This document shows positions 33,081-61,115 of a stretch of 61,115 bases of DNA, piece by piece; position 1 is the first letter of the stretch, and every line of letters starts with the position of its first letter. The DNA comes from a virus (lineage: Duplodnaviria > Caudoviricetes). The stretch covers positions 1 through 61,115 of the IMG/VR virus record IMGVR_UViG_3300017967_000022; one strand, given 5' to 3'. Both the position numbers and the translations under genes were made by a program. The notes beneath the pieces were generated by a model, which was given only the letters and a program-made list of their open reading frames with translations, was not told the origin of the DNA and did not search any database.

Positions 33081-33425
33081 ATGGATGAGAAGTTAGAAAA
33101 AGCCTTGGAATTTGGCAATTATTCTGCCACGTTAGATAACCAAAAACGTATGTTACACGAAAAGTTTGTAACAGACTCTATCTATTTTACCAACGGCGGC
33201 CAATTCACTATATCAAAAGAACTTATTAACTATGTTAACATTTTGGTTAACACTGGGCAAGAGTCATCTGTTTTGATTGACGACAACGATATTCCGATTG
33301 AGATAGCAGATGTTGAAGACTTCTATTCAAACATCACAAACAAATACTTTGTTGCTCTAAACGATTATCATATAGCATATAAAAAGTTAGAGTCAAGCAG
33401 AACGGTTGACGGCTTAGTAGAATGA
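33081..33425 (+). CDS. Hypothetical protein, possibly a fibre-assembly chaperone
   Basis: 114-aa ORF coupled (ATGA) to the next gene; function guessed from position only. Confidence 0.5.
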   Translation: MDEKLEKALEFGNYSATLDNQKRMLHEKFVTDSIYFTNGGQFTISKELINYVNILVNTGQESSVLIDDNDIPIEIADVEDFYSNITNKYFVALNDYHIAYKKLESSRTVDGLVE

Positions 33426-34240
33426 CAAATGGTGTACTTTTATTTGCATACAACAATGCTCAAATAGATTATGTTGCACAGGCTTGCTTTTTAGCAAAGC
33501 GTGTAACACAGTACCTTAACCTTCCTACAACTCTTGTTACTGACGATAAAAAACGTGTAGAAGAATACTACGACTCTAGTGTATTTGACAATATTGTTGT
33601 ACTAGATAACAAACGCTGGAATAAAAAAACATATGCTGATGGTAGTTTATCTAAAAAAACACTAGACTTTAAAAATTATAATCGTACAGATGCATACGAT
33701 GTAACACCATATGATAATACGCTAATACTTGATACAGATTATATTATTTCAAACAGTTTATTAGCAAACTGTTTTGACAGTGTAAACGATTTAATGATGT
33801 ATTCAAGTGCAGTTGATATTACAGGCTGGCGAAATACAGACGAATTTAAATTAATTAGTGAAACAAGTATAAAATTTTATTGGGCAACTTGTGTATTTTT
33901 TAGAAAAAACAACAAAAATAAGATTTTCTTTAACTTATTAAAACACATTAAAGAAAACTATCAACACTATCGTAACCTATATCAAATTACAAGCACAGTG
34001 TATCGCAATGACTATGCGTTTAGTATTGCGGCACACATTGTTGGTGGTGTAAAAGAGTTACCAGGAAGAATGATTTATAGTACACATAACGATGTACTGA
34101 ATAAAATTGATAACGAAAACATAAAGTTACTTGTTGAAAAACAAAATAGAACAGGCGAATATACATTATTAAAAACAAGTGGCATTAATATTCACGTTAT
34201 GAACAAGTTTAGTTTAAACAGGGAAATAGCCAATGCCTAA
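33422..34240 (+). CDS. Glycosyltransferase-like protein (GT-A fold)
   Basis: AYDVTPYDNTLILDTDY (DxD motif); YRND.AFSIA. Confidence 0.65.
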   Translation: MTNGVLLFAYNNAQIDYVAQACFLAKRVTQYLNLPTTLVTDDKKRVEEYYDSSVFDNIVVLDNKRWNKKTYADGSLSKKTLDFKNYNRTDAYDVTPYDNTLILDTDYIISNSLLANCFDSVNDLMMYSSAVDITGWRNTDEFKLISETSIKFYWATCVFFRKNNKNKIFFNLLKHIKENYQHYRNLYQITSTVYRNDYAFSIAAHIVGGVKELPGRMIYSTHNDVLNKIDNENIKLLVEKQNRTGEYTLLKTSGINIHVMNKFSLNREIANA

Positions 34241-35051
34241 TTTTACAGTCCTTGCACAAAATAACGAAGACAATTACATACGTCAAGCAGAATTACTAGC
34301 AATGAGTATTAGGAATACTAACCCTAAAAGTAAAATATGCCTAATTACAAATGATGTAGTAGAAAACAAAGAACTGTTTGACGACATTGTACCTATTCCT
34401 TGGGAAGATGCCGGCGAAGAACACAAATGGAAAGTACAAAACCGTTGGAAGATATATCATGCTTGTCCATATGACGCAACTTTTGTGCTAGATACTGATA
34501 TGTTAGTACAACAAGATCTGTCAAACTGGTGGAACTTGATGCAAAATTATGATGTGTTCTATACAACAGCAGTTACAGACTACAAGTTTGAAAAACCTGA
34601 CACAAGTTACTATAGAAAAATGTTTATAGAAAACAAATTACCAGACACTTATGTAGCATTGCACTACTTTAAGAAGTCAGACTTTGCAAAAAAGTTTTAT
34701 ACTTGCTTAGAAGAAGTAATGAAGAACTGGGAATACTATTATGAAAAGTATGCTCCTAAGAAAATGCAAAAGTTTTTAAGTGTAGATGTATGTACAGCAA
34801 TTACTATTAGAGTTTTAGACTGTGAACATTTAGTTACTAACAAAAAGTTACCGTTTCCTACTTTTGTACACATGAAGCCATACTTACAAAGTTGGAAAAC
34901 ACAAACAAAGAAATGGCAAGACAGAATTACTTGTTTTGTTGATGACGATTTAAATTTAAGAGTTGGTGGTTGGTTACAAAACACAGTGTTCCACTATACA
35001 GAAAAAGATTTTACAGGAAAGTTTTATGACAGATTTAAAAGATTGGACTGA
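34233..35051 (+). CDS. Glycosyltransferase-like protein (GT-A fold), paralog of the upstream gene
   Basis: NRWKIYHACPYDATFVLDTDML (DxD motif); FVHMKP. Confidence 0.65.
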   Translation: MPNFTVLAQNNEDNYIRQAELLAMSIRNTNPKSKICLITNDVVENKELFDDIVPIPWEDAGEEHKWKVQNRWKIYHACPYDATFVLDTDMLVQQDLSNWWNLMQNYDVFYTTAVTDYKFEKPDTSYYRKMFIENKLPDTYVALHYFKKSDFAKKFYTCLEEVMKNWEYYYEKYAPKKMQKFLSVDVCTAITIRVLDCEHLVTNKKLPFPTFVHMKPYLQSWKTQTKKWQDRITCFVDDDLNLRVGGWLQNTVFHYTEKDFTGKFYDRFKRLD

Positions 35052-35607
35052 AGTTCCTATAAAACCAGCACCAACATATGCTAACTTTAATGTAACTACT
35101 GGTTACATTGATAGTTTTAGCGACTCGCCTCTTGGCGAACATAGTATTGAAGTTGAATACGATAGTGTTAGAGATATTATCGAAGGCAAAGCATTTTACA
35201 AACACTACAAAGTATTGTTTAATCCTGCATCAACTATGTATGAACTTGTAAATGTACACGAAGAAAAAGCATACGAGTACAATGTTAATAATAGTTTTTA
35301 CAAAGTACAAGAAAATGATAGTGCAGATATTATTTTAGTTAAAAATTACATAACGCAACAATGGGAATTAACATTTGGTAAATTGTTTCAAAAAACACTA
35401 GATAAAAACAATGTAACATTACAAACTAAAAAACAATTTAGTATTGTAAAGAAAAATGACCCATATGTTCTATATAGAGAATTAAATTTTGATTTAAGTT
35501 CAAACGATTTAGTCTTGCAATTTAATGAAAATGATAGTATAATAGAGTTTGACGTTTACACTACTAAAGTCTTTAACAGTTACGGAGTACAAGTTGTCAA
35601 AAATTAA
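35026..35607 (+). CDS. Hypothetical protein
   Basis: Start moved to ATG 35026 (AGGA upstream); no recognisable motif. Confidence 0.55.
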   Translation: MTDLKDWTEVPIKPAPTYANFNVTTGYIDSFSDSPLGEHSIEVEYDSVRDIIEGKAFYKHYKVLFNPASTMYELVNVHEEKAYEYNVNNSFYKVQENDSADIILVKNYITQQWELTFGKLFQKTLDKNNVTLQTKKQFSIVKKNDPYVLYRELNFDLSSNDLVLQFNENDSIIEFDVYTTKVFNSYGVQVVKN

Positions 35608-36484
35608 AATACAAGATGTTGATATTATCTTTTTAAGTTATGACGAGCCTAATGCTGAAGAAAATTGGGCAGACTTAAAACGTAAAGTGCCTTGGGCAAA
35701 AAGAGTACACGGTGTTGAAGGCAGTGATGCCGCACATAAAGCCTGTGCCGATTTATCAGATACAAAACATTTTGTAACAGTTGACGGTGACACTATTGTT
35801 GATCCTCGATTTATGCAAGTTGAATTAGACTTAGACAAACTAGGTGTAGATGACGACTATCAATTTAGTTGGTGCGGTAAAATTGATGTTAACGGACTTA
35901 TGTACGGTAACGGAAGTTTGAAGATGTGGACAAAAGAGTTTGTAAAGAATATGCGTACACACGAAAATACAGACGGTACAAACGAAACTAGTATTGAGTT
36001 TTGTTATTTTGACAACTATTATCAACTAAACGAAAACTATAGTAGCAGTATTATTACAGGCAGTCCTTTACAAGCATGGAGAGCAGGCTTTCGTGAAGGT
36101 GTAAAGATGTCATTAGATAGGGGTACTAAGGTAACTGATATTGAAGAACAGTTATGGTGGCAAAATAGACATAGACTTTACATATGGCAAATGGTAGGTT
36201 GTGATGTGCCAGACGGCATATGGGCAATCTACGGAGCAAGACTAGGCTGTTATAAAACAATGTGTACTGATTGGGATCATACACAAACACGTGACTTTGA
36301 ATATCTTAAAGAATTATGGAAAGAACATGAAACTGTTAATCCAGCAGAAGAAGCAAAAGAAGTTGGTAAAAAATTAATTAACGAATTAGACTTACCTATT
36401 GCAGTTGTTCCATACGATAGTTTGCAAAGTAAATTTTTTAAAACTGTTTATGTAAATAGTGATAGGGTTATTAGACGTAAATGA
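35594..36484 (+). CDS. Glycosyltransferase-like protein (SYDEP family)
   Basis: Start moved to TTG 35594 (GGAG RBS); DIIFLSYDEPNA...RVHGV.G..AAH...VDGD (DxD motif)...AWRAGFREG.K. Confidence 0.65.
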   Translation: MSKIKIQDVDIIFLSYDEPNAEENWADLKRKVPWAKRVHGVEGSDAAHKACADLSDTKHFVTVDGDTIVDPRFMQVELDLDKLGVDDDYQFSWCGKIDVNGLMYGNGSLKMWTKEFVKNMRTHENTDGTNETSIEFCYFDNYYQLNENYSSSIITGSPLQAWRAGFREGVKMSLDRGTKVTDIEEQLWWQNRHRLYIWQMVGCDVPDGIWAIYGARLGCYKTMCTDWDHTQTRDFEYLKELWKEHETVNPAEEAKEVGKKLINELDLPIAVVPYDSLQSKFFKTVYVNSDRVIRRK

Positions 36485-36732
36485 AAATTAGATACTATCA
36501 TAACATAGATGGCTGGCGTTGGCTAGGATTCGTCTTGGCTATGGTAGGTGCTTTTATACTTAGTGGCGGTAATGCCAAACTGCAATGGATAGGTTGGGCA
36601 GTTGCTTGCCTAAGTTGTACAATATGGGTTTGGATGGGAATTAAGGACAAGGATGTGCCGAGAGCACTCATGGAATTGTTTTATTTGCTGTTAGCAATAC
36701 GTGGTATATTTAACTGGATAGAATATGAGTGA
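36481..36732 (+). CDS. Small membrane protein with about 3 TM helices
   Basis: 83 aa with three hydrophobic segments; overlaps both neighbours. Confidence 0.6.
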   Translation: MKIRYYHNIDGWRWLGFVLAMVGAFILSGGNAKLQWIGWAVACLSCTIWVWMGIKDKDVPRALMELFYLLLAIRGIFNWIEYE

Positions 36733-38092
36733 AGTACAGCGAATAAAATCTATTATGCCAGAGATTGATGAAATCTCGCCTACCTTTTGTTTGGCTAAAT
36801 GGCATCATGTTACTATCTATTTACAAACTGGTGAAACACACAGTTGTTATCATCCGGCTCCACATAAAATTCCCTTAGAAGGATTACAAGATAATCCTAG
36901 TCAATTACACAACACACCTGAAAAGAAACGTGAACGCGGTTTAATGTTGCAAGGTGAAAAACCTAGTGGTTGTCAGTACTGTTGGAATATTGAGTGTATG
37001 GGCAAAGATTACATTAGCGATAGACATATTAAAACAGCGAGTATATACACCCCGGAACGTATAGAAGAAATTAAAAGTAATCCTTGGGATTATGATATTA
37101 ATCCAGAGTATATTGAAATTAATTTTAGTAACCAGTGTAACTTTAAATGCGGTTACTGTCATCCTAAGTTTAGTAGCAGATATTATAACGAGATCAAAAA
37201 GCATGGTCCTTATAAAGACAGTACAGCACATCGCAATGATATTGATTATTTTGAATTATACAAAGAAGAAACTAACCCATATGTAGAAGCATGGTGGAAG
37301 TGGTGGCCTGAAGTAAGTAAGACACTAAACATTTTACGTGTTACCGGAGGCGAACCGTTAATGCACAATAGTACCTGGAGATTGTTTGACGAATTAGAAG
37401 CAAATCCTAAACCACATCTCAATATAGAACTTAATAGCAATATGGGTGTTAAGCCAGAACGTATAGTAAAACTTGTAGAACGTTTAAAAGTATTAAAAGA
37501 TAAAAACTGTATTAACAGTTTTAAATTATATACAAGTATCGATACCTGGGGTCCTCGTGCAGAGTATACACGTACAGGATTAGATTTAAAATTATGGGAA
37601 TCAAACTTAGATTATTATCTAACTAAAACAGGTTGGCCTGTAACATTTATGGTTACATTTAATTTATTTGTTGTTACAAGTTTTGATGATTTATTACATA
37701 AAATATTAGAGTGGCGCAAGAAGTATAATACAGATGAACAAACTAAATGGCAACGTATTAGATTTGATACACCTTATTTAAAAGAGCCTATTCAGTTTGA
37801 TATGAACATACTTCCTAAAGATGAATTTATGCCATACATGATGAATCATTTATTGTTTATGCAAAACAATGTAGACGATAAGGATAGAACAAAATTTAGT
37901 AGTTTGGAATATGAACGTCTAAGACGTGTAGTTGATTATATGCGTAAAACAGAGTATGACGAAAAGAAACTATTAAATGGTAGGCGTAATTTTGCTAGTT
38001 GGTTTAAAGAATATGATAGAAGAAGAGGAACTAACCTAGTAGAAACATTTCCCGAGTTTAAAGAGTTTTATCGTTTTTGTGAAAGTTGCTAA
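36725..38092 (+). CDS. Radical SAM protein with N-terminal Cys cluster (group A)
   Basis: CNFKCGYC; TGGEP; N-terminal FC..KW...SCYH...CQYCW. Confidence 0.9.
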   Translation: MSEVQRIKSIMPEIDEISPTFCLAKWHHVTIYLQTGETHSCYHPAPHKIPLEGLQDNPSQLHNTPEKKRERGLMLQGEKPSGCQYCWNIECMGKDYISDRHIKTASIYTPERIEEIKSNPWDYDINPEYIEINFSNQCNFKCGYCHPKFSSRYYNEIKKHGPYKDSTAHRNDIDYFELYKEETNPYVEAWWKWWPEVSKTLNILRVTGGEPLMHNSTWRLFDELEANPKPHLNIELNSNMGVKPERIVKLVERLKVLKDKNCINSFKLYTSIDTWGPRAEYTRTGLDLKLWESNLDYYLTKTGWPVTFMVTFNLFVVTSFDDLLHKILEWRKKYNTDEQTKWQRIRFDTPYLKEPIQFDMNILPKDEFMPYMMNHLLFMQNNVDDKDRTKFSSLEYERLRRVVDYMRKTEYDEKKLLNGRRNFASWFKEYDRRRGTNLVETFPEFKEFYRFCESC

Positions 38093-39191
38093 CCATTGCT
38101 TGGTTATGTAATAATGTTGCTTTAATATCTTCTAAATTGTAATTTTCTTTTTCAACAGTTTCAATCAACTCAAATATAGCATTCATACGTTCTGTATGAT
38201 TTTCAATTGAATCGTATTCTTCACTCCATAACTCGTTAAATGTTTTAAATCCTAATTCTTGTAGATACTTTAGTGTGTGAGGTGGGCCGACCATAATAAA
38301 AGGTCGTCCATATAACATAGCGTTAAAAGTTTTTTCACTAAAGTTAGCAGTTGGTTGAGCAAAGCGTGTTTCATTAACAATAGCACACATACTGTCTATA
38401 TAAAATCCCTCTAGTCCTTTACCTTCAGGAGCAAACATAGGCCAATGTTTCATACCAGCGTCGGTTGTTTCTGCATTGTTGTAATCTAACACATACGGGG
38501 TATTTTTATTAAGTATATTAATATTTTTTTTAATTATATTTTCATACTTCCACGCATCTAAATCAATCCAAGTACCATCCATTAACAACTCGTAGTTAGT
38601 TCTAAAGTTCCAACTTAAATGACAATCTTTATCAACTAAAAATGCAGAAACTAAATGTCTATGTTTAGTGTAACGCCAATTAGGACAAATAAACTTTTTA
38701 TTGTATTTGAAGTTTAATTGGCTTCCGCTACCGCAAAAAAAATCACGTAGGAAAATATCTAAGCAGTGTAGATTTAAACTAGGATAATTTTTAGAATAGT
38801 ATTTTTGTACATCATAATCGCCTGTGTACACATTAACGTTTTTAATATCGTATTTTTCTTGCCATTCAACTATGCTGTCTAATTCATCTGCACATAAATT
38901 GTCATTAGAATTGAATTCGCTATAAAAATGATTATTATGTTTAGTTCCTTTTATGTAAGGACTAACAGGTTCGTACAAGTAAATGTCAACACCGCGTCTT
39001 TTTAACTTGTTAATAGTTTTAATACTAAATTCTAACTCATTAAACTGTTTAATATGGTTAGTGCCTGTGTAAACAAACGTAGGACGGGTTGAATCTTTTA
39101 GAAAACTTTTTAAGAATAATTCTGCTAACATTCCTCTATTTTTATCTCGCATACTAGGAATGTTTTGCCAAAACAAATCTTGTACAAACAT
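38058..39191 (-). CDS. Putative glycosyltransferase-like protein
   Basis: C-terminal IVNET...FSEKT......RPF..VG....L..L...GFKTF...W.E.YD; paralogous to 41933-42892. Confidence 0.5.
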   Translation of the reverse strand: MFVQDLFWQNIPSMRDKNRGMLAELFLKSFLKDSTRPTFVYTGTNHIKQFNELEFSIKTINKLKRRGVDIYLYEPVSPYIKGTKHNNHFYSEFNSNDNLCADELDSIVEWQEKYDIKNVNVYTGDYDVQKYYSKNYPSLNLHCLDIFLRDFFCGSGSQLNFKYNKKFICPNWRYTKHRHLVSAFLVDKDCHLSWNFRTNYELLMDGTWIDLDAWKYENIIKKNINILNKNTPYVLDYNNAETTDAGMKHWPMFAPEGKGLEGFYIDSMCAIVNETRFAQPTANFSEKTFNAMLYGRPFIMVGPPHTLKYLQELGFKTFNELWSEEYDSIENHTERMNAIFELIETVEKENYNLEDIKATLLHNQAMVSNFHKNDKTL

Positions 39192-39685
39192 TAGAAAAAT
39201 GTGCCTGTAATTTGTAGTGTATATCTTGGATCAACGCCTATGTTACTAGCCGCGTGTGGTACATCTGGATTCCATAATACATATTCACCTGCTTTATAAT
39301 TTACAACAGCAGTGCCGTCTATTTCAAAGTAATGTCCTGGCTTCCAGTCTTCTAAAAATACAATAGCACGTCTTACATCATTACGTTCTTGATTAAACAC
39401 ACGACAGTAGGTATTAAAATGATCTACGTGTGTTGGCATAATGTCTAGAGTATCCATACGGTAAAACACAAAGCCTGTATTTTTTAAGTTAATACGTTTA
39501 GCAACATCGTTGACCCACTCAGGCATTGGGTTTCGACTGTCGTACATTTTGCCTGTTGTTGTGTTGTGAGTGTAACCTTGTTCACGCCACATATCCGATT
39601 CTTCACCTGTAATAGGTTGTCTAATATAATCAAAGTCTTTGTAACTTTCGTCCCATAAGACTGGTAAAAATCCTCTACTCCACAT
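39191..39685 (-). CDS. 2OG-Fe(II) oxygenase-like protein
   Basis: HVD...H triad (PTHVDH; VPHAASN) and RYTLQITG. Confidence 0.7.
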   Translation of the reverse strand: MWSRGFLPVLWDESYKDFDYIRQPITGEESDMWREQGYTHNTTTGKMYDSRNPMPEWVNDVAKRINLKNTGFVFYRMDTLDIMPTHVDHFNTYCRVFNQERNDVRRAIVFLEDWKPGHYFEIDGTAVVNYKAGEYVLWNPDVPHAASNIGVDPRYTLQITGTFF

Positions 39686-40643
39686 CTCGTTCTATATCCA
39701 ATGTTACGCAGTGAAAACCACCGCCTAATGTTCTTTGATGCCTCATTGGCAACATAGCACATTCAATACCTTGTGCTTCTAGTGCTTTACGTAGTGGCTC
39801 TTGATGTTTTTCAAGTGCTACTAATTTAGTATTTACACTAAACAAGTTCATGTTTATCCACGTACTTGCATTACACCAACCTGGATAATGTCCAATGTCA
39901 ACAGGTTCGGGACACCATAAAATATCCCAATTTCTAAAAGGCATTGGCAAGTCTTCTTTGCTTTTAATTCTACTAGGATTAGCAAGTAATAATCCATCAC
40001 GTAAAAAAGCAACAGTACTGTCAATGTGCATATAACTATAAACATCTTGTAATAAATGCACTTGTGCTGTATCACCTAGTGCATCTTGCAATAGTGTTGC
40101 ACCGAGTTTGTTTCCGCTATTACTTACAAGATATAAAACGTGTTCGTTAGCACGAATAATATTTGCGGCATCAAACGCAGGCTCAAACTCATTTAGTGCT
40201 AGTATGTCCTTATTGCCTATGCAATCTGTATTATACAATTTACTTTCGTGATAGCACGGAACTTGAACAGGACTTTTTAGGTGATGTTCAAATGCCTTCC
40301 ATTCGTGCTTCCTTGCTCTAATAGGCATTGGTGTTGCAAGTGTTAAATCCCCGTGTACAAATACCGAGTCTCGAGGGCAATAATTATAATAGTTACAATC
40401 ATTAGTATTAGGACGTACAACTTCAATTGATTCTCCTTCTAAAAAATCTACAAAGGTTTGTAAATCTTCGTTTGCTTCGTCTATTACTTGTTGTGGGTAA
40501 GGCCCTTTTTGTATTTCACTATCATCTCGTACGTCTGCAAAATTTACACAACGCAAACTAATATCAATATCAGTAGGAATTTTTGCATGATCTGCAACGC
40601 CAACAATTACTTTACGAAGTTGTCCCCATTCATTACTAGACAT
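39675..40643 (-). CDS. Amidinotransferase (glycine/inosamine-phosphate amidinotransferase family)
   Basis: NEW..LR.VIVG, CPRD, FDAA, HIDST and RTLGGGFHCVTLD catalytic motifs. Confidence 0.88.
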   Translation of the reverse strand: MSSNEWGQLRKVIVGVADHAKIPTDIDISLRCVNFADVRDDSEIQKGPYPQQVIDEANEDLQTFVDFLEGESIEVVRPNTNDCNYYNYCPRDSVFVHGDLTLATPMPIRARKHEWKAFEHHLKSPVQVPCYHESKLYNTDCIGNKDILALNEFEPAFDAANIIRANEHVLYLVSNSGNKLGATLLQDALGDTAQVHLLQDVYSYMHIDSTVAFLRDGLLLANPSRIKSKEDLPMPFRNWDILWCPEPVDIGHYPGWCNASTWINMNLFSVNTKLVALEKHQEPLRKALEAQGIECAMLPMRHQRTLGGGFHCVTLDIERDVE

Positions 40644-41316
40644 ATGAAACCCTTCCAGGCCAGTGTTTTAAAATTAAATCTTCTAAATCAAGATTACTCA
40701 TTCTAGAATTTTCACCTTTGATTTGTTGTACGATTATCTCCATTTCATTACACCAGTCTTTAGTTGTTTGTTTTAGTGTATATCCGAGGTACGGATAAAT
40801 TGTATTTTCTACATAACGCATATGTTCTAATATACTTGGGTGCGAGTCGGTAACATAAACGTTTTTTGTTCTAGGAAATACGTTTTCAGCACCTGGCAAA
40901 TTTTCATCAACTTTATCTTTGTGTCCTTGAAATAAATCTACATGAAAAGATTTTAAGTATGCATTTGTTTGCAATATTGCTGTTTTGTTTCTAATTATAT
41001 CGTTTTCTTCACTCCAGTGGTTACTTAGATATTCGTCGCTGTAATAGTCACTGTTTAAAATATTACCTTCAGTTACCCATTTGCCTTCTTTAAGTAAATC
41101 AACTCTTTGCCAACTGCTCCATAAAATACAAACAAGATCATTTTGATTAAAATTATGTTTTTCATTTGCTTCTATAGTGCGGCAAGCAATACCTTGATTG
41201 CCCATGCCTGCTTTTGCATAATTATGATTTTCGCAGTCTAAATCTTTTGCAATTATATCACTCCATGTCGGCCAAATGTATTCGGTGTACGAACATCCAA
41301 AGGTAAACAATCTCAT
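40636..41316 (-). CDS. SGNH/GDSL-like protein
   Basis: FGCSYT, N.AKAG.GN and D.HP motifs. Confidence 0.6.
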   Translation of the reverse strand: MRLFTFGCSYTEYIWPTWSDIIAKDLDCENHNYAKAGMGNQGIACRTIEANEKHNFNQNDLVCILWSSWQRVDLLKEGKWVTEGNILNSDYYSDEYLSNHWSEENDIIRNKTAILQTNAYLKSFHVDLFQGHKDKVDENLPGAENVFPRTKNVYVTDSHPSILEHMRYVENTIYPYLGYTLKQTTKDWCNEMEIIVQQIKGENSRMSNLDLEDLILKHWPGRVSYV

Positions 41317-41897: not shown

Positions 41898-41902
41898 ATA
41901 CA

Positions 41903-52012: not shown

Positions 52013-53145
52013 AGTACAGCCACCGTTTCTATGTCCAACCAATCGTTAACAGTAACTAGTGTTGAACTATCATCGTGTGTATTATAAACGATTGTGTGTA
52101 TTTTGTCTTTGTAAATTACAGGACGCCCAAACATTAAATTATCTGGATATGTTTTTGAAATCCATATTCCGTTAGGGTCTACTTTATATAAAGAACATCC
52201 AGGAGTTCCTGCTGGTAAGAAATAAGCATAGCCTTTAAAAGCAATACCGCTACGATATCTAAACTTACCACCGTAAGTTTCTTTTATACTAAATTGAAAA
52301 CTTTCTTTAGTAACAGTATTAAACACTACACCTTTATTACTTTCTCCATGTTCTGTTCCGTATGGTAATCCAATAATAACATCGTCAACTAGTACTTGTG
52401 CATTATATTTTTTAGCAAAGTCGTCAACATTTAATTTATGTAGTTGGCATCCTTTTGTTTTTGTATCAAACTCAATTACTTCGTTTAGTCCTGGAGTTTC
52501 TCCGAACGGTAAACTAAAAAGTTTATCACCTACAACAACAGCATCAGTGTATTTGCGTGATACTTCTGGTAGGTCTAGTTTGTGCTTAATTACTTTCTTG
52601 CCATCAAACTCTAGTATGTTTGAATAGTGAACACTTTCGCCTCTTGGCATACTGTAATAACTTCCGTTACAATACACAGTACCCATATGTGCTTTCTTTT
52701 CGTTTGTATCTACTTCAACGGTTTTAACTTTATTGTCTTTGATATAAATTAAGAATTGTGTATCTTCGTAGCCTAGAGGAAAACTACAAGCAGTGTTACC
52801 GTGACTAGCAACACTATAGAATTGTCCCTTACCTGTTTTATCTAGTGTATGGTATATTGGCTTTTTATCTTTTAGTTGTACAACAACATTTAGGTCATCG
52901 TAAATGCCATATGGAATAAGCCATACGCTGTCGTCAGTAACTCCTACAGCATTAAATTTACTAGTTGCAGGTGGCACGTTATCTAAAGGAATAAGACTGG
53001 TGTAGTCTTTGTAGAACGCACACATATCATATTCTTCGTTGTTTCTAGTACCAAAAGGCGGACTAATTAATTCGTCCTTGTTTACTTCTAGTACAAGGTG
53101 TCTAATACGTGCTTCGTTATAAAATTCTTCAAATGCTTTATACAT
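52009..53145 (-). CDS. Beta-propeller repeat protein
   Basis: Repeats spaced about 45-50 aa, each centred on P(Y/L/R/F/A)G after a hydrophobic strand. Confidence 0.6.
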   Translation of the reverse strand: MYKAFEEFYNEARIRHLVLEVNKDELISPPFGTRNNEEYDMCAFYKDYTSLIPLDNVPPATSKFNAVGVTDDSVWLIPYGIYDDLNVVVQLKDKKPIYHTLDKTGKGQFYSVASHGNTACSFPLGYEDTQFLIYIKDNKVKTVEVDTNEKKAHMGTVYCNGSYYSMPRGESVHYSNILEFDGKKVIKHKLDLPEVSRKYTDAVVVGDKLFSLPFGETPGLNEVIEFDTKTKGCQLHKLNVDDFAKKYNAQVLVDDVIIGLPYGTEHGESNKGVVFNTVTKESFQFSIKETYGGKFRYRSGIAFKGYAYFLPAGTPGCSLYKVDPNGIWISKTYPDNLMFGRPVIYKDKIHTIVYNTHDDSSTLVTVNDWLDIETVAVL

Positions 53146-54379
53146 TGTTTAAATCTATCGTGTTTAATACAGTACCGGATATTGTATCAAATACTAGTAC
53201 TGTTTGAAATGTTTCGCTTTCACCATATGGAAATGCAAACATTGTGTCTTGTATCATTACACAATCATTATACTTTTCTATAGTTGTGCTGTCTTTAAAA
53301 TAGTCACTGATGTCTATAGTGTACGTGCTATCGTCACTGGTATTGACAACTAATACTTCTGCTAGATCACCTTGACTTTTCCAAGTATCTTCGGGCTCAC
53401 AAACACATCCACCTCTTGGAATATAATAGATTTTTCCTTGACTATTTTCTAAGCCAGTAAAATATTTCTTGCTTTCTTTTCCTATATCTAAATTTTTAAT
53501 ATACCACTCATCTGTAACACTGTTAATAACCAGCATCTCACTCCAATCTTCATCGTGGCCTGCTGGAGGAAAATAAACTTTTCCGTTTCTTGCAACAGTA
53601 TGTGAGTAGTATTTTCTACTAGTTTGTTGTTGTTTTGTTTTTACACCTTGCCAACCTTTTCCGTCAAACTTTGCTAGGATGTCAAACACAGGACTTTCGC
53701 TATATGGTGGTGCATATAATTTGTTCCCCACTTTTGCTAGTGTGGTAAACTTTTTATTACAGGTTCGATCTTCATCGTAGTCTACCCACCAAGAACTCAT
53801 ATCAATTAATTTATAACTGCTGTCAAAACAATCATATTCTATTCTATAAGGAAAGAATGTGTCGTGATTTTCACCTCGGGGCATTCCGTAAATAATACCA
53901 TCTACCATTTGTGTAGTGTGCCACATTTTAGTATCAGTAACAGGAATATCTAAACCCATTAATTTAAAATTATGTGACTTCATATTAAAGTCTAGTACAT
54001 AGGTAAACGGTTCGTGTTCTCCGTAAGGAATAGCAATAATTCTATCACCGTAAACGTGTCCTTGTACATACTTGCCTCGTCCTTTTATTCTTAAATCAAC
54101 ATAATCAACACTGTCGTCTTTGGTATCTACAATTAGGATACGACTTTCGTTATAGGGCAAGAAATAGATCTTGTCACGATGTACAATACCTTTCTGCCAT
54201 TTTTCTGTGGAATCATCTACATCTAGTTTAATTTTTTCTATACGATATGTGCGTGGATCCATCTTGAGCATATAGTCAAGAGATTCTGTAAGGCCGTAAG
54301 GAGGAACGTATATCATTCCGTTGCTACCTACTGTAGCATAACTAAATGCTTGTGGTGTCAATCTTTTCTCCAAAGGCAC
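53138..54379 (-). CDS. Beta-propeller repeat protein (paralog)
   Basis: Repeats IYVPPYG, IYFLPYN, IIAIPYG, IYGMPRG, LYAPPYS, VYFPPAG, IYYIPRG, MFAFPYG. Confidence 0.65.
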   Translation of the reverse strand: MPLEKRLTPQAFSYATVGSNGMIYVPPYGLTESLDYMLKMDPRTYRIEKIKLDVDDSTEKWQKGIVHRDKIYFLPYNESRILIVDTKDDSVDYVDLRIKGRGKYVQGHVYGDRIIAIPYGEHEPFTYVLDFNMKSHNFKLMGLDIPVTDTKMWHTTQMVDGIIYGMPRGENHDTFFPYRIEYDCFDSSYKLIDMSSWWVDYDEDRTCNKKFTTLAKVGNKLYAPPYSESPVFDILAKFDGKGWQGVKTKQQQTSRKYYSHTVARNGKVYFPPAGHDEDWSEMLVINSVTDEWYIKNLDIGKESKKYFTGLENSQGKIYYIPRGGCVCEPEDTWKSQGDLAEVLVVNTSDDSTYTIDISDYFKDSTTIEKYNDCVMIQDTMFAFPYGESETFQTVLVFDTISGTVLNTIDLNNV

Positions 54380-54797
54380 TTTTTAAATCTTTATCTAGTT
54401 TTTCTAAAACTTCTTCAGGATTATATATGCCAACGTTATCCCAATCACACATAGATATTTTATCACCGTCGATAATAATATTACTTAGCACCCAATCTCC
54501 GTGTGCATATGGACTAGTTTCGTTTATGTTGCTAACACAGAAGTTATAAATCTTATCTACAAATTCTGGAGTATGTTCAAACTCACTTGCAGGTTTACCT
54601 GGAATAATATTAAAGCAAATATACATATTTCCATCTTCAATGCCATGTGATTGTACGTATCCAGGTACTAATTCATCTAGAACATCAACGTGCCATTCTA
54701 ACCACTCTTCGTCAAGGTAGTGCCAAACTTTTTTATAGCAATTATCAAGTTTGTAAACCCTACGTGCTTTTTCTTTATTAACTTTAATTAATTCCAT
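54342..54797 (-). CDS. Minimal APH/protein-kinase-like phosphotransferase
   Basis: HGDWVLSNII....CDWD catalytic and Mg-binding motifs in only 151 aa. Confidence 0.7.
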   Translation of the reverse strand: MELIKVNKEKARRVYKLDNCYKKVWHYLDEEWLEWHVDVLDELVPGYVQSHGIEDGNMYICFNIIPGKPASEFEHTPEFVDKIYNFCVSNINETSPYAHGDWVLSNIIIDGDKISMCDWDNVGIYNPEEVLEKLDKDLKSAFGEKIDTTSI

Positions 54798-55818
54798 ATG
54801 CCTGTGCTACTTCTGGTAAGTAGTCCTTAATATTTACACGTCTAAATTTATCTAATTTTGTAATTTCTTCAACAAAAATTCTTTGTTGATTTGTATCAGC
54901 AGTTTCACTAAACCAGTTTGTGTTAATTTTAAATTGTTCTTTTAAACTATCTGGAGCATTTTTAACGTGTAACCAATCAGGTTGAGAAAGATAATTTTCC
55001 CAAACCTGTAAGTTATGCTTATCACTCCATTCTAATAATTCATTATGGTAGGCGCTGTTTAATATACTTAAACAAGGAGCAATATCTGTCTTATACATAT
55101 CTTTATAACGCAATGTATTTTCTTCTACAGTTTTCCAATCCGCACCGTATCTAATGTATTCAATTCTTTTTCCTACAGCATCCATACTTACACTCATTAT
55201 AACACGGTTAAAGCGTTTGAGCAAGTCTTGTACACGAGGATTGAATAAACTTCCGTTTGTATTAAAACGAATAGTAACACTTGAGTCTAGCCTTTCTAAA
55301 AACTGAGGCAAGTGTTTAACCATCATAGGCTCGCCGCCTGTAAGATAAACTTCTTTTAGTGGCAAGTTTTCAAAGTAGTGTAAAAATTTTTCATCATACC
55401 AGTTGTAATTTTTTACATCTAGTACAGTATGATATGGATTTAAATTTTGTTTAGCCATCTCTGCGGCTTCTTCTGCGATGCTACTACTTGCACCACTATG
55501 ACAACTTATACATTTAAAGTTACAACTATTTCCAAACCGTAAATCTAAGTGTGTTATATCAGGACCGTAAAAATCTTTTTGTTGTCGTCTACTAGGTATT
55601 CCTGCTTCTTCGTGTCGCTTACAAGTAATACAAGCATCAGGCCATTCGTCCTTTGCTAGAAGTTCTTTAGCATTTACAACAGGTTGACTGTTAAGCCACT
55701 CTTGTGGAGTATGAGTGTGTACAGTTTCTACATTGTTGGGTTCGTTGCTAGTACAACATAATCGATATTGACCGTTAGCCGCAATGTATACATGACTTTC
55801 TAAAAGTTTACATCTCAT
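54784..55818 (-). CDS. Radical SAM protein with N-terminal Cys cluster (group A)
   Basis: MRC...LCC...CITC; CNFKCISC; TGGEP. Confidence 0.9.
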   Translation of the reverse strand: MRCKLLESHVYIAANGQYRLCCTSNEPNNVETVHTHTPQEWLNSQPVVNAKELLAKDEWPDACITCKRHEEAGIPSRRQQKDFYGPDITHLDLRFGNSCNFKCISCHSGASSSIAEEAAEMAKQNLNPYHTVLDVKNYNWYDEKFLHYFENLPLKEVYLTGGEPMMVKHLPQFLERLDSSVTIRFNTNGSLFNPRVQDLLKRFNRVIMSVSMDAVGKRIEYIRYGADWKTVEENTLRYKDMYKTDIAPCLSILNSAYHNELLEWSDKHNLQVWENYLSQPDWLHVKNAPDSLKEQFKINTNWFSETADTNQQRIFVEEITKLDKFRRVNIKDYLPEVAQAYGIN

Positions 55819-56681
55819 AGCATACGAGCCTTGTGCATTAATTCATTTGCGTTGTTAGTGATTTCTGTTAGTTCAACACTTACGATATTTTTATATTTGC
55901 TTAACATTCTTGTCCAGATATCTCTATCTAAGTTATACACGTTATTCCATTCTAAAGGCATAACTAATTTTCCTACAACGATGTAACCTAATGCCATATC
56001 TAATGTAATTGGCTTGTTTACATTTTTCTTATACCAATCAACAAAGTGTTTTGTAACTGTGAATGGAGTTTCGTATGCAGAACGATATAACATATATCCC
56101 TCGCAGTTGATATGCTGTTGGGTAACTATCTCGTTAATTCTATCACTTTCACCTCTACCACAAATCTCTAACCAATGTTTGCCTAGAGTGTTATAACCCA
56201 TGCACAAGTCACCAAAACTTCTATCCATTCTAAAATATAATAAATCCTCATTCTCAATTGGTAATGTAGTAGCACCGTCAAATCTAAAAAAACTATTAAT
56301 GCGAGGAGAGTCTTGATTACTTAAAAACTGTTCGTATGTATGAATAAGTCGATTTAACTTATCATAATCCTCGTTTGAGGACTTTGTATTTTCTACAAGT
56401 TTGTGTAAATCATTTAACGAAGTGTTTGGATCGATATTTAAACTAGTTGTAAGATTTACAATTTCTTGCTTTAATTCTTCTTCATCTTTTGTATCTAGTA
56501 CAAAACTTGTTTCTTGCACTAGTGGTTTATTAATATTTTCTTGTAGCAAATACAAGAATTTCTGTGCTGGGTGGTGATCATATAATATGTAAGTTAACGG
56601 AAGCAAATCTTCGCCGTTAGAATATGTTACTGTAATACCAGGCTTATTCCAATATACTTTTTCAGGCAATAAATATTCCAT
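55815..56681 (-). CDS. Hypothetical protein
   Basis: 288-aa ORF coupled (ATGA) to the downstream rSAM gene; FGDL.MGY.TLGKHW motif, function unknown. Confidence 0.6.
   Translation of the reverse strand: MEYLLPEKVYWNKPGITVTYSNGEDLLPLTYILYDHHPAQKFLYLLQENINKPLVQETSFVLDTKDEEELKQEIVNLTTSLNIDPNTSLNDLHKLVENTKSSNEDYDKLNRLIHTYEQFLSNQDSPRINSFFRFDGATTLPIENEDLLYFRMDRSFGDLCMGYNTLGKHWLEICGRGESDRINEIVTQQHINCEGYMLYRSAYETPFTVTKHFVDWYKKNVNKPITLDMALGYIVVGKLVMPLEWNNVYNLDRDIWTRMLSKYKNIVSVELTEITNNANELMHKARML
56669..56675 (+). promoter_or_regulatory. Late promoter inside the divergent gene, 6 nt before ATG 56682
   Basis: ATAAATA-TTCCAT-ATG. Confidence 0.55.
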
Positions 56682-58662: not shown

Positions 58663-59958
58663 ATGAAACAAGAAACATTATCAGAAGCAATAAAGAAAGC
58701 CAACCTTGGCGACAAGGTAATGGACGACAGTGCTATGTGTGCAATGAAATGGATTCATTGTTATGTACACCTTAATGAAGGCATTGTAAAGAATTGTCAT
58801 AACGTGCCGCAACGTTTTATCACACAAGAAGAACTAGACAAGTATGGCAAAGATGTGTTTATGAAACACCCATACGAACTAGAGCGTAGACAAGAAAAAC
58901 TAGATAACATAAGACATAAAGATTGTAGTGCTTGTTGGCGCAACGAAAAACGCGGAGTAAGAAGTCCAAGATTGCCTAGCAAGTATTTTGAGTTTCATCG
59001 TGGTCGTTTTGAAAATCCTGCAGATATGCTAGAGCCATTACCTAGTCAACTTGAAGTTTATTTTAACAACACCTGCGACTTAAAGTGCCAATACTGTAAT
59101 GATGTATTCAGCAGTCAGTGGGAAGTTGAAAATCGCAAGTTTGAAGAAACACCAAGACAAAAGCACACAGCACCGGAAGGCTTTGCAGATACTTTTTATG
59201 AATGGTTAGATGATGCTGTTGACAATGTACTACAATATTATATTTTAGGTGGAGAGCCTTTAATACAAAATGAATTATATGATTATCTTGATAGACTAAT
59301 TGAATTGTTTAAAAAGAAATCAAACAAGTTTAATATTAAACCTGTTATTATTTTAATTAGTAACGGCAATACTCCGGAAGCATATCTAAACAAGTGGTTT
59401 GAAAAGGTTACTGAGTTAGAAAAATATGCTAGTGTACAAATGGACATTAGTATGGAAAGTTACGGAGAGAAAGCAGAATTTATTCGCACTGGGTTAAACT
59501 GGGATAGGTTTGCTAATAATGTAAAACGTATTATGGAGTTTGCAGAAGGCAAAGACTTTAGACTACGTTTTAGTACAACTCACAGTGCATTAAGTATTAC
59601 AAGTTGCTTAGACTTTTTACAATGGTTAAAGCAGTTAAAAGAACAAACAGGGTGTGATGTTGATTTAATTAGAAGCAATGTTTCATATCCGGTACACCTA
59701 GCACCTTGGATGCTAACAAAAGAGTTTAAACCTTACATTGATGATATTGTTAAATGGATTAACAAAAACGCACCTGAATGGAATTACTATGCCGACTTTA
59801 TGAAAGCAATTAAAAAGAGTTTTGGAAAACATTCAAACTCGGATAAGATTGAAGTTGTTAAATGGGTAGAACGTACAAAGATAAGACGTAATCTAGATCT
59901 AGTAAAAACATTCCCCGAACTAGAGACGTGGTATAAGTATTGCCAAAATCATCGCTGA
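58663..59958 (+). CDS. Radical SAM protein with N-terminal Cys cluster (group A)
   Basis: Start moved to ATG 58663; MCAMKW...NCH...CSACW; CDLKCQYC; LGGEP. Confidence 0.9.
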   Translation: MKQETLSEAIKKANLGDKVMDDSAMCAMKWIHCYVHLNEGIVKNCHNVPQRFITQEELDKYGKDVFMKHPYELERRQEKLDNIRHKDCSACWRNEKRGVRSPRLPSKYFEFHRGRFENPADMLEPLPSQLEVYFNNTCDLKCQYCNDVFSSQWEVENRKFEETPRQKHTAPEGFADTFYEWLDDAVDNVLQYYILGGEPLIQNELYDYLDRLIELFKKKSNKFNIKPVIILISNGNTPEAYLNKWFEKVTELEKYASVQMDISMESYGEKAEFIRTGLNWDRFANNVKRIMEFAEGKDFRLRFSTTHSALSITSCLDFLQWLKQLKEQTGCDVDLIRSNVSYPVHLAPWMLTKEFKPYIDDIVKWINKNAPEWNYYADFMKAIKKSFGKHSNSDKIEVVKWVERTKIRRNLDLVKTFPELETWYKYCQNHR

Positions 59959-59964
59959 TAAATA
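59958..59964 (+). promoter_or_regulatory. Late promoter
   Basis: ATAAATA in the short gap before ATG 59975. Confidence 0.5.
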
Positions 59965-59974
59965 TGGGTACAAT

Positions 59975-60754
59975 ATGAAGTACATATCAAATTACGATCC
60001 GAAACTAATTACACCACACTTTATAGATGGGTTGGAATATGACATTATTGAACTACCTTGGAAACTAGACATAGATAAACTACAAGAGTGGTACAATCAA
60101 GTAGACAGTACATATGACAACTTGTATTTTAGTTGGCGTAAAGAACAATACCTTAAAGACAAATATCATTTAAAAAACATCGAAACAGCATTTGCTGGAG
60201 AAGTAGGTGCAGAAGGTAGAGGCGTTCATGACGAAGGTTATCATATTGTGCGTTACATTAAAGAACAGTTTGAACACCCAGAAGAAATACTTGTAATGGA
60301 AGTTAGTTGGCCTGTTGAAAAAGATATTCCTTGTCCTCCTAAATGGGCAGGCAGAGAAGACCTATATCCTGAACTTGCTACTGACGCACCTAAACGTGTA
60401 CAAGAAAAATTTAAGTTTGGATATTTTAAAGAACTAGTAGATTACTTTGGAGAGGATATTTTGCGTGATGTTAGTATTAGAAAACATCAACCAGATGCAG
60501 TATTAGGAAAACACATTGACGGTCCTAACGTACAGCGATTACATATTCCTGTAACAACCGGCGAAGGTGCTATATTTGCATACGGAGAAAATCTAGAAAG
60601 AGAATATAATTTACAGTTAGGTAAAGCATATATTATTAATGCCGCAGTACCCCACGGTACATTTAATCGTAGCGGTATTAATCGCAGTCATTTACAAAGC
60701 AAACCACATACAGATGCTATTGTTAAAATGTGTAATATGGAGGTAGTGCTTTGA
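59975..60754 (+). CDS. Asp/Asn beta-hydroxylase-like 2OG-Fe(II) oxygenase
   Basis: HID....RLHIP...G.AY.IN...PHG..N....R.HL. Confidence 0.72.
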   Translation: MKYISNYDPKLITPHFIDGLEYDIIELPWKLDIDKLQEWYNQVDSTYDNLYFSWRKEQYLKDKYHLKNIETAFAGEVGAEGRGVHDEGYHIVRYIKEQFEHPEEILVMEVSWPVEKDIPCPPKWAGREDLYPELATDAPKRVQEKFKFGYFKELVDYFGEDILRDVSIRKHQPDAVLGKHIDGPNVQRLHIPVTTGEGAIFAYGENLEREYNLQLGKAYIINAAVPHGTFNRSGINRSHLQSKPHTDAIVKMCNMEVVL

Positions 60755-61115
60755 AAGAACTAGAGCAGTACTGGCAAGAAAATAACAAGGAATACGAATT
60801 TAAGTATCCAGAGCAGTTCGATCCTAAATGGATTGTAATGGAAAGTGGCTGGCCTTTTTTTAAATTAAGTGCATTAGACAATCAACCTTGGAAAGAGATG
60901 CACATTGAGGCAGAAGCGTTACTTGAATATTTTAAAGATCACAGAACTGACTATGGAGAAGGTTGGAAGAGTCTTACACTACACGGACTTAGTGAAGATA
61001 CACAAACACTAAACAGTTATGGCGATCGTGCTGAAACTATCAAACAGTTGGACTGGACTTGGGTAGCAGAACAATGCCCTGTAACTAAAAAGTTTTTAAC
61101 AGATGTGTGGCCTGC
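60751..61115 (+). CDS. Probable hydroxylase-like protein, N-terminal part (truncated by the window)
   Basis: Not in the ORF track. TTG start with GGAGG RBS, open to the window end: ...HR...GW.SL.LHG...WT.....CP.T..FL. The catalytic triad is not within the window. Confidence 0.55.
   Translation, partial: MKELEQYWQENNKEYEFKYPEQFDPKWIVMESGWPFFKLSALDNQPWKEMHIEAEALLEYFKDHRTDYGEGWKSLTLHGLSEDTQTLNSYGDRAETIKQLDWTWVAEQCPVTKKFLTDVWP

Follow-up and report, generated by a model that had tools for sequence, protein, structure and literature searches.

The DNA analysed here, called the window in the following, is a complete virus contig of 61,115 bp from IMG/VR (IMGVR_UViG_3300017967_000022; Duplodnaviria, Caudoviricetes) and a fragment of a larger genome. 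Baseplate and fibre genes up to position 33057 are followed by an enzyme-rich island with ten radical S-adenosylmethionine (rSAM) proteins, which runs from 33081 to the window end and is the subject of this study. An initial annotation, made from the sequence alone, had described at least 28 kb of nearly pure enzyme genes directly behind the tail-fibre genes, and this was confirmed: the island consists of 33 open reading frames (ORFs) that abut or overlap, with zero intergenic space and gap-free coding. It overruns the window end; in the closest relative, G002, it continues for about 6 kb and comes to about 34.5 kb in total. Established for this island are its gene content, its conservation, its place between fibre genes, a motif shared with the structural genes and the polysaccharide-locus context of its bacterial homologues.

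As initially annotated, ten ORFs (within 36725-59958) carry the CxxxCxxC motif, and all of them match the Pfam family Radical_SAM (PF04055) at E <= 1.8e-6. Nine reach the Pfam cut-off of 29.5 bits, and the tenth, at 36725-38092, scores 28.7 bits in one scan and 30.1 in another. We distinguish three classes. Class A comprises five proteins with 22-28% mutual identity that belong to NCBIfam NF033640, a family with an N-terminal twitch domain, and score 223-426 bits where the cut-off is 170; the remaining five proteins score 18-65 bits on this model and are not members. Class B consists of three short proteins (21-24% identical) and class C of a pair that shares 31% identity and has a C-terminal SPASM domain. 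Among the cysteines of the N-terminal auxiliary cluster of NF033640, C13, C89 and C92 are invariant across 13 sequences and C32 is nearly so; moreover, Pfam SPASM matches the N-terminus in three of the five class A proteins. Every rSAM protein has an ortholog of its own, which reaches up to 80-97% identity in the relatives closest to the window, while the paralogs within the island are only 21-31% identical. The ten are old genes, distinct from one another, and did not arise by recent duplication.

The best PDB sequence matches of the rSAM proteins are the N-terminal half of viperin (E about 2e-4) and SkfB (1e-7, the best for class A). Viperins were considered and rejected: the best score on the prokaryotic viperin model NF038283 is 59.5 bits against a cut-off of 180, over profile positions 3-114 of 281, and the match to PADLOC pVip covers positions 2-100 of 257, so that both reflect the shared rSAM core only. 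A distant homologue in Ralstonia phage RsoM2USA sits among genes that are all named 'hypothetical'.

Relatives were collected with the class A gene at 48071-49396, which gave 156 viral relatives, and 80 loci were kept for comparison. The island genes are colinear in these 80 loci, with amino-acid identities of 60-99% across many viral contigs. A core of about 12 genes (44879-52042, 54342-55818, 57634-58629 and from 60751 onward) is found in the same order in 52-80 of the 80 loci, where identities are 60-90%. The synteny comparison that the initial annotation had called for also supported the linkage to tail genes, as the island adjoins fibre genes in eight of ten long relatives, with a weak match in the ninth. 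All five long relatives first compared have the gp6-like gene on the same strand, some 30 kb upstream, and a single block that unites the 8-10 strong rSAM matches; in five further relatives, the island-adjacent fibre gene is on the same contig in three (55-61% identity), gives a weak match in the fourth and is absent from a 41.8-kb contig. The fibre-block orthologs (26405..33057) keep their order in the relatives G001, G002 and G004. At the island end of G002, a minus-strand block carries an Mtd_N fibre-like gene, with an ATAAATA motif of its own, among its early genes. Together with the upstream fibre block, this means that the island is flanked by fibre-like genes on both sides. Past the island (L113:1906-7321 in G002, L109:15580-19777 in G001), we observed the Mtd_N fibre-like protein with ATAAATA and a DUF2201 metallopeptidase/VWA protein, followed in G002 by a MoxR-type AAA ATPase.

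The structural genes indicate the lineage of the phage. The 1146-aa wedge protein and the 4954-aa giant protein have their nearest matches, with identities of about 29-35%, in jumbo myoviruses of the Rak2/GAP32, PA5oct and Atu_ph07 type. For the gp6-like baseplate gene the top matches are jumbo phages of the Rak2/Atu_ph07 type, and 25 cyanophage records match more weakly; for the giant protein, the listed matches are jumbo phages only, while Pfam yields nothing beyond weak FG-GAP and CBM_5_12 matches. Island proteins were found on contigs of up to 338-343 kb, and the 156.6-kb relative G001 is 44% complete by CheckV. These data place the window in a marine jumbo phage lineage and not among the pelagimyophages or cyanomyophages. 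Membership in either of these groups is not supported by the structural genes, although the contig has island genes in common with both. A megablast search of the island DNA against 50,697 phage records gave no match.

Outside the viruses, metagenome-assembled genomes (MAGs) of Bacteroidota and Bdellovibrionales contain tandem, full-length homologues of class A, with about 29% identity. Their neighbours include GT1/GT4 and GT2 glycosyltransferases, a UbiA-GT1-GDSL fusion, a PMT-like protein, FdtA, a GFO/IDH/MocA oxidoreductase and several PhyH dioxygenases. One Bacteroidales MAG holds at least six class A copies within a typical polysaccharide locus, which also encodes a PglD-like acetyltransferase, a full-length DegT enzyme, a C-SPASM rSAM, a B12-rSAM, a GDSL protein, a GT2 enzyme, an AsnB-type amidotransferase and an epimerase/dehydratase. 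The phage class C protein shares 40% identity with a Bdellovibrionales MAG gene that adjoins class A copies and a GT2 gene. Since these bacterial loci pair class A and class C proteins with GT2, DegT and GDSL enzymes, the same enzyme mix recurs in cells and phage. Glycosyltransferases are present in all five bacterial loci scanned (L081, L082, L085, G014:C27 and G015:C220). The bacterial loci thus resemble the island in their tandem rSAM paralogs, C-SPASM rSAMs, DegT, GDSL/SGNH and GT2 genes, whereas they differ in being cellular, in having membrane- or lipid-linked steps (UbiA, PMT-like) and in an identity of just 25-40%. A characterised member of this rSAM family was not found, and none of 14 model genomes has a protein above the NF033640 cut-off. 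Very large sets were observed in individual MAGs, one with at least 11 members above the cut-off and another with 6-8 in one tandem array (L120/L121, which is G014:C27, and G015).

The island itself also encodes transferases and sugar enzymes (Table 1). Of the up to six glycosyltransferase-like proteins initially annotated, four are supported by fold or paralogy, and the other two remain candidates. The GT8 and GT-A proteins match no Pfam, PHROG-function or NCBIfam entry and were assigned by fold alone; the structure searches that had been proposed as a check yielded a GT8-like fold and a GT-A fold for two predicted models. The AlphaFold2 model of 33422-34240 has a mean predicted local distance difference test score (pLDDT) of 93.8; its top Foldseek matches are glycogenin (4.8e-7), GlyE and LgtC, and the DxD residues D104 and D106 are invariant across 33 sequences. 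For 44879-45565, Foldseek gave RmlT, ppGalNAcT, WrtF and SunS at about 2e-4, with a PBCV-1 capsid glycosyltransferase at rank 45. VIA-align gave a Z of 11.1 to B4GALNT1 (root-mean-square deviation 2.9 over 135 residues); nucleotidyltransferases score almost as high for this protein.

The amidinotransferase and the nucleoside-diphosphate (NDP)-sugar dehydrogenase of the initial annotation were both recognised with confidence (Table 1). The dehydrogenase is 57% identical to a gene of Synechococcus phage Bellamy and 48% identical to one of Pelagibacter phage HTVC008M, and the amidinotransferase is nearest to StrB1 of the streptomycin pathway (207 bits; the families that come next score 121 and 115). 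The predicted aminotransferase is of the DegT type and has the lysine region; complete fold-type I pyridoxal phosphate (PLP) enzymes have about 360-390 aa, whereas this protein has 196 aa and no C-terminal domain, a short form that is kept in the relatives and in Synechococcus phage S-SCSM2R. Twitch-type rSAMs have a parallel in aminocyclitol biosynthesis in BtrN. Together with the StrB1-like enzyme, the DegT/StsC-type aminotransferase and a fragment similar to APH, they echo aminocyclitol pathways, and the island might accordingly be read as making a free small molecule, such as a guanidino-aminocyclitol, an aminoglycoside-like compound or another secondary metabolite that acts on the host or on competitors. 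The region ORF302-310 of S-SCSM2R (PQ898602) shares with the island the 196-aa DegT/AHBA-synthase-like protein (55% identity), the amidinotransferase (64%) and a small cupin (29%), although these genes lie among glycosyltransferases with one rSAM gene, where the island has ten, and in a different part of a cyanomyovirus genome. According to the available passages of the S-SCSM2R paper, the amidinotransferase, short DegT and rSAM trio are called 'antibiotic synthesis genes', and the same passages state that the reason for them is unclear (PMC12801897). We consider a free molecule improbable: no inositol-phosphate synthase, cyclase or exporter was detected with Pfam and NCBIfam (12 ORFs have no assignment), and a macromolecular acceptor agrees better with the four proteins that have glycosyltransferase folds and with the constant association with fibre genes.

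All four hydroxylase-like proteins of the initial annotation are supported, mostly via their homologues, and some of them weakly resemble LpxO and OlsC. We observed that ten oxygen-labile Fe-S radical enzymes share the island with at least four oxygen-dependent hydroxylases of the cupin or 2-oxoglutarate (2OG) type. Among the other genes, the 83-aa ORF at 36481-36732 may, judging by its size and a weak match to PnuC, the nicotinamide mononucleotide (NMN) transporter, encode a small transporter-like membrane protein, and it is the sole membrane candidate in the island. The pair of propeller-like proteins (52009-54379), which belongs to the 12 ORFs without an assignment, is present in 19 of the 80 related loci. 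In the ESM Atlas, the clusters nearest to 53138-54379 are virus-only, apart from one bacterial cluster with Reg_prop in 22% of its members; the scores for 55815-56681 were all below 0.9, from which no conclusion was taken. PDB profile searches with 44879-45565 and 53138-54379 gave nothing at E <= 1. Homologue searches with 33422-34240 (796 matches) and 41933-42892 (91 matches) returned only unnamed proteins, none with a Pfam family.

Table 1. Features of the window and of the island in the relative G004
Feature	Position	Strand	Evidence and remarks
Structural block	1-33057		Baseplate and fibre proteins: gp53-, gp5- and gp25-like, 1146-aa gp6-like wedge protein, 4954-aa giant protein, collar/gp10-like, fibre with Peptidase_G2 chaperone domain (Pfam)
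Giant protein, 4954 aa	10900-25764	+	Residues 1-2000 match virion structural proteins of Atu_ph07, PA5oct, Rak2-like phages and SCTP-2, ~29% identity
Fibre/baseplate-periphery genes just upstream of the island	26405..33057	+	Collar and gp10_C protein, 705-aa protein, 492-aa fibre with Peptidase_G2 chaperone domain, 310-aa protein (Pfam)
GTAAATA variant	33069..33075	+	5 nt ahead of first island gene (33081)
114-aa protein, first island gene	33081..33425	+	No family match (Pfam, PHROG, NCBIfam); orthologs 49-72% identical in relatives
GT8-like retaining glycosyltransferases, two paralogs	33422-34240 and 34233-35051	+	Fold; 24% mutual identity; no Pfam match
~191-214-aa protein	34963..35607	+	Start probably near 35026, since orthologs have 191-195 aa; no family match
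GT-A-like transferase	35549..36484	+	Paralog of 44879-45565: 32% over 209 aa, E = 1e-21
GTAAATA variant	36452		Precedes 36481
83-aa hydrophobic protein, weakly PnuC-like	36481..36732	+	Pfam NMN_transporter, E = 0.0042, under cut-off
rSAM class A, copy 1	36725..38092	+	NF033640, 314 bits; CxxxCxxC at residue 138
Five-gene unit	38058..41903	-	196-aa DegT-type aminotransferase, SGNH-like protein, StrB1-like amidinotransferase, 164-aa cupin, 377-aa protein; ATAAATA 41903-41909 at head
Cupin, 164 aa, hydroxylase-like	39191-39685	-	29% identity to gene annotated as cyanophage 2OG oxygenase
Amidinotransferase, StrB1-like	39675-40643	-	PDB 1bwd, E = 3.7e-60, residues 3-319 against 7-339, catalytic-Cys motif GGGFHC aligned
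SGNH-like protein (putative)	40636-41316	-	No family match; N-terminal GxS-type motif read off the sequence
Aminotransferase, DegT-type, 196 aa	41313-41903	-	SFQxxK lysine region aligned; covers AHBA synthase 39-122 and 178-213; without C-terminal domain
Island ATAAATA sites	41903(-), 56669(+), 58635(-), 59958(+)		At head of island units
319-aa protein, opens long plus-strand operon	41933..42892	+	Distant paralog of 38058-39191; no ATAAATA upstream
UDP-glucose/GDP-mannose dehydrogenase family enzyme (NDP-sugar dehydrogenase)	42889..44076	+	Pfam central and N-terminal domains; phrog_9148, 1.5e-94
SGNH-like paralog (putative), 272 aa	44073..44891	+	36% over 73 aa to 40636-41316; weak DUF6473 match
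GT-A-fold transferase with DGD motif, conserved core	44879..45565	+	Model pLDDT 88.2; in 52/80 related loci
rSAM class B, copy 1	45540..46517	+	Pfam, 52 bits; class from paralog comparison
Class-I methyltransferase-like (weak)	46514..47113	+	Methyltransf_25, E = 0.0015; G004 homologue 0.0091; in 80/80 loci
rSAM class C, copy 1	47113..48099	+	Pfam Radical_SAM and SPASM; the 40% identity to the Bdellovibrionales MAG gene adjoining N-twitch rSAMs is full-length
rSAM class A, copy 2	48071..49396	+	NF033640, 426 bits; probe for finding relatives
Cupin, Asp/Asn-hydroxylase-like	49332..50045	+	Start probably 49389; 32-35% identical G001 and G004 proteins match Asp_Arg_Hydrox at ~1e-5
rSAM class B, copy 2	50042..50947	+	Pfam; paralog comparison
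Six-gene minus operon	50927..56681	-	288-aa protein, rSAM class A (54784-55818), 151-aa APH-like protein, two propeller-like repeat proteins, rSAM class A (50927-52042); head without ATAAATA
rSAM class A	50927-52042	-	NF033640; in six-gene minus operon
Propeller-like repeat proteins, paralogous pair	53138-54379 and 52009-53145	-	413 and 378 aa; 7-8 repeats of hydrophobic-x-P-Y/R-G-E/S motif
APH-like putative kinase, 151 aa	54342-54797	-	Weak: window protein without match; 2/2 homologues scanned match APH, E 4.5e-4 to 1.5e-3
rSAM class A	54784-55818	-	NF033640; in six-gene minus operon
rSAM class B, copy 3	56682-57653	+	Pfam; preceded by ATAAATA 56669-56675
rSAM class C, copy 2	57634-58629	-	Pfam; ATAAATA 58635-58641 at head
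rSAM class A, copy 5	58663..59958	+	NF033640, 223 bits; ATG at 58663 chosen to fit 431-aa ortholog
Cupin, Asp/Asn-hydroxylase-like	59975-60754	+	Asp_Arg_Hydrox, E = 0.0013; preceded by ATAAATA 59958-59964
Cupin, Asp/Asn-hydroxylase-like, cut at window end	60751-61113	+	231-aa G002 ortholog: Asp_Arg_Hydrox, 7e-15
kdsA gene of G004	L114:6666-7439		Between glycosyltransferase-like and rSAM genes
hemE-like gene of G004	L114:8434-9375		Between glycosyltransferase-like and rSAM genes
hemC gene of G004	L115:4117-4956		Between glycosyltransferase-like and rSAM genes

Several island units share a motif with the structural genes. The heptamer ATAAATA, which we take to resemble the late promoters of T4 and cyanophages (TATAAATA / NATAAATA), has nine copies in the window against 34.4 +/- 6.1 expected, an about four-fold under-representation. 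All nine lie at most 40 nt upstream of a same-strand gene start, five before baseplate or fibre genes and four before island units; one copy, at 30600, lies within the fibre block. The exact T4 octamer TATAAATA occurs just twice in the window. In a 1.1-Mb set of the window and related loci, ATAAATA, with 110 copies, is less frequent than any other of the 21 heptamers that share its composition, most of which have 530-1190, and 63 of the 110 copies lie upstream of an ORF. In G001, all 25 copies are placed just upstream of sense ORFs. Among the 23 genes that follow them, 13 are uncategorised and ten have a PHROG category, which is structural in every case (baseplate hub or wedge, tail fibre, connector, virion protein). 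G002 keeps all four island sites, G001 carries the motif at two of them, including the head of the 38058..41903 unit, and in G004 the dehydrogenase operon has a divergent pair of copies at its head. Being avoided, upstream-only and followed, where a category exists, by structural genes, ATAAATA is a predicted TATAAATA-like -10 element. The available parts of the PA5oct paper report only TATAATA/TTGAC promoters (PMC7318152). About half of the ATAAATA/GTAAATA sites (6940, 33069, 56669 and 58635) end 5-6 nt before an ATG, the others are located 20-31 nt upstream with a purine-rich stretch in between, and at 41903 the final A of the motif is the A of the ATG. The short spacing may hint at leaderless late mRNAs.

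Logan contigs of four metatranscriptome runs (salt marsh, seawater), compared with 41101-61100, gave scattered short contigs with 0-3 differences in three runs and more divergent ones in the fourth; such libraries may hold DNA, and the contigs show neither starts nor timing and are not evidence of expression or lateness.

The island might also serve to hypermodify the phage DNA, a process that makes use of transferases, kinases, PLP enzymes and rSAM enzymes; distant homologues of the amidinotransferase (24-25% identity) occur in Campylobacter phages. We nevertheless give this explanation hardly any weight, as neither the window nor the scanned flanks of three relatives contain genes for nucleotide metabolism or base exchange, and a pre-replicative role fits poorly with the motif of the structural genes and with a place between fibre genes.

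The sugar enzymes, the transferase folds and the polysaccharide-locus company of the bacterial homologues point to a glycan as the product. The virion is suggested as the target by the association with fibre genes, by the motif shared with structural genes, by soluble transferases whose structural neighbours glycosylate proteins (glycogenin, GlyE) and by the absence of multi-pass membrane proteins in a crude hydropathy scan of the island. We therefore favour, tentatively and with somewhat less than even confidence, a late-expressed pathway for a radical-tailored glycan that is probably attached to virion proteins. The late timing, every substrate, the order of the steps and the acceptor are what we infer in the following scheme. 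The enzyme of the UDP-glucose-dehydrogenase family would oxidise NDP-hexoses of the host, the short DegT-type enzyme would aminate the sugar, and the StrB1-like enzyme would move an amidino group from arginine, while the small APH-like protein may provide a phosphate handle, as in streptidine synthesis. Acting on sugar nucleotides or on the growing glycan, the ten rSAM proteins would carry out hydrogen-abstraction chemistry, for which epimerisation, deoxygenation, C-methylation or C-C bond formation are candidates. Oxygenases similar to cupins and Asp/Asn hydroxylases would add hydroxyls, and the SGNH-like pair would add or remove acyl groups. The last step, in the cytoplasm, would fall to the soluble GT8-like and GT-A-like transferases, which would link the product to its acceptor, most likely fibre or baseplate proteins that are synthesised in the same period.

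Several observations weigh against this reading. Inside the island of G004 we found kdsA (338 bits, cut-off 242), hemC (270 bits, cut-off 164) and a gene similar to the uroporphyrinogen decarboxylase gene hemE (257 bits, below the cut-off of 303). Relatives also carry a BioA-like (class III) aminotransferase, TauD dioxygenases and a HAD protein within the island, at different points. The island is thus also a hotspot for unrelated auxiliary genes, and the initial dismissal of scattered auxiliary genes holds for the conserved colinear module and not for these insertions. In addition, the identity to G002 is mosaic from gene to gene, ranging from 51-58% to 99-100%: the right half (50927-61113) is mostly 92-100% identical, whereas the values are 58% for 46514-47113, 51% for 41840-42892 and 78% for the gp6-like baseplate gene. 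This pattern suggests a recent exchange of island segments between lineages. Published tail-fibre islands are described as hypervariable in the available text of Zaragoza-Solas et al. 2020 (PMC7029224). One may hence suppose that there is no single pathway at all, and that a recombination hotspot behind the fibre genes collects unrelated auxiliary genes, with rSAM proteins that serve several unrelated ends. Given the ordered core in most of the loci and the recurrence of the class A and class C pairing in bacteria, this appears to us to have only a slim chance of being correct.

The glycan could also be destined for the host. Ugd, a DegT-type enzyme and GT-A transferases recall lipid A and O-antigen pathways, and the main rival to a virion glycan is a remodelling of the host envelope, in which the tailored sugar is placed on the lipopolysaccharide (LPS) core, O-chain or capsule, for example to block adsorption of other phages or of the phage's own progeny. 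Lipo-oligosaccharide is likewise a substrate of GT8 and GT-A enzymes, and LgtC, a lipo-oligosaccharide enzyme, is among the top structural matches of the GT8 protein. LgtC-type and other peripheral LPS transferases need no membrane span, so that the lack of membrane proteins is compatible with an envelope target. The kdsA gene in relatives, the weak likeness of the hydroxylases to LpxO and OlsC and the surface-polysaccharide loci of the bacterial homologues point in the same direction, and the glycosyltransferases of pelagimyophage tail-fibre islands have been interpreted in print, in the available passages, as modifying the host O-chain (PMC7029224). On the other hand, no flippase, polymerase, ligase or polyprenyl-phosphate transferase is among the Pfam matches of the island, and the hydropathy scan fits an envelope pathway poorly. 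The island stays between fibre genes across the relatives; several of its units bear the structural-gene motif, and late expression seems a poor fit to superinfection exclusion. Envelope remodelling is, in our judgement, rather unlikely, and we retain the virion glycan as the preferred reading.

For the rSAM proteins, no characterised close relative of any of them is apparent at the sequence level. SPASM/twitch enzymes act mainly on peptides, most of them being peptide or protein maturases, and the case for a sugar substrate therefore comes from the gene neighbourhood alone. The Asp_Arg_Hydrox family, moreover, includes protein hydroxylases. The rSAM proteins and hydroxylases might thus modify proteins or peptides directly, by cross-linking, epimerisation or hydroxylation of the fibres or by making a product similar to ribosomally synthesised and post-translationally modified peptides (RiPPs), with the sugar genes serving a separate function. 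The rSAM proteins give weak NCBIfam matches to many maturases, and the PDB entry that class A matches best is SkfB; a PHM-like copper monooxygenase is encoded in one of the bacterial loci, and the two propeller-like proteins between rSAM genes are virus-only. However, no candidate precursor was found in the island, which has no intergenic space for one, and its 114-aa and 83-aa ORFs do not look like the Cys-rich leader-core type (overlapping ORFs below 80 aa were unscreened). Pfam and NCBIfam matched no RiPP recognition element domain, peptidase or exporter, and every bacterial locus scanned carries glycosyltransferases. Direct modification is therefore an unlikely explanation in our view, compared with glycan tailoring by the same enzymes.

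Expression of the virion-glycan pathway as a whole is a further difficulty. The two largest operons, 41933->50947(+) and 56681->50927(-), comprise 17 genes with six of the ten rSAM proteins and have, in the window, no ATAAATA at their heads; the initial statement that the island units start with the baseplate-type motif applies to four units and fails for these two. Sigma-70-like sites are not enriched in the window (80 against 86.8 expected) and no other promoter type stood out, which leaves both large operons without a promoter candidate. The kinase, the methyltransferase and the two SGNH-like proteins of the initial annotation were recovered through weak matches, motifs or paralogy and have no firm family match, and these assignments, made from sequence comparisons, are weak.

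Viral soluble glycosyltransferases encoded beside structural genes reportedly decorate virion proteins, both in the mycobacteriophage virion glycosylation described by Freeman et al. 2023 and in chlorovirus capsid glycosylation. To our knowledge, these systems involve no radical SAM chemistry and far fewer genes than the island. The closest published parallel lies in marine phages, where the accessible passages of Zaragoza-Solas et al. describe a hypervariable host recognition cluster at the tail fibres of pelagimyophages and cyanomyophages, with radical SAM cassettes to which no function is assigned, and count an Asp/Asn beta-hydroxylase as core in those phages (PMC7029224). Like the island, this cluster is a large, variable fibre-gene island with glycosyltransferases and rSAM cassettes behind a giant structural protein; in contrast, the structural genes of our contig are nearest to Rak2, GAP32, PA5oct and Atu_ph07, and its rSAM load is much larger. 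A T4-like marine genome, TARA_ERS488813_N000010, has 12 rSAM genes, a number comparable to that of the island; the passages available from Nishimura et al. 2017 list them as Fe-S-related auxiliary genes and give no arrangement, class or role (PMC5332604). The accessible part of the moraphage paper, which deals with another lineage, does not contain the word 'radical' (PMC12619734), and that of a brine-pool preprint mentions one rSAM gene only. Literature searches, with the supplements of PMC7029224, PMC5332604 and PMC12801897 outside their scope, found no paper giving such rSAM cassettes a function. The island is an extreme representative of a type on record for marine myophages, and to call it undescribed, as was done initially, was an overstatement in view of the cassettes and the 12-rSAM genome in print.

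Overall, the island is a real and conserved module, coherent at its core, and its chemistry is probably that of a glycan, timed with virion assembly. A more specific proposal, which we regard as possible and at the same time doubtful, is that the N-twitch, short and C-SPASM rSAM families are sugar-tailoring enzymes, both in phages and in the polysaccharide loci of bacteria, and that ten of them are used late to make a guanidino-bearing, radical-modified glycan on the phage's own tail fibres, where it would govern host recognition or resistance to degradation. Tail-fibre islands rich in sugar genes are common in abundant marine phages, and none has a demonstrated product or target. The present island offers several handles in this respect: its operons are defined, it has a late-type motif and four transferase folds, and its StrB1-like enzyme predicts a guanidino group that mass spectrometry could detect. 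If the rSAM families do act on sugars, this would be a new enzyme chemistry common to phage and to bacterial capsule and O-antigen loci, and if the glycan is carried by the fibres, it would link the glycosylation of phages to their host range in the ocean.

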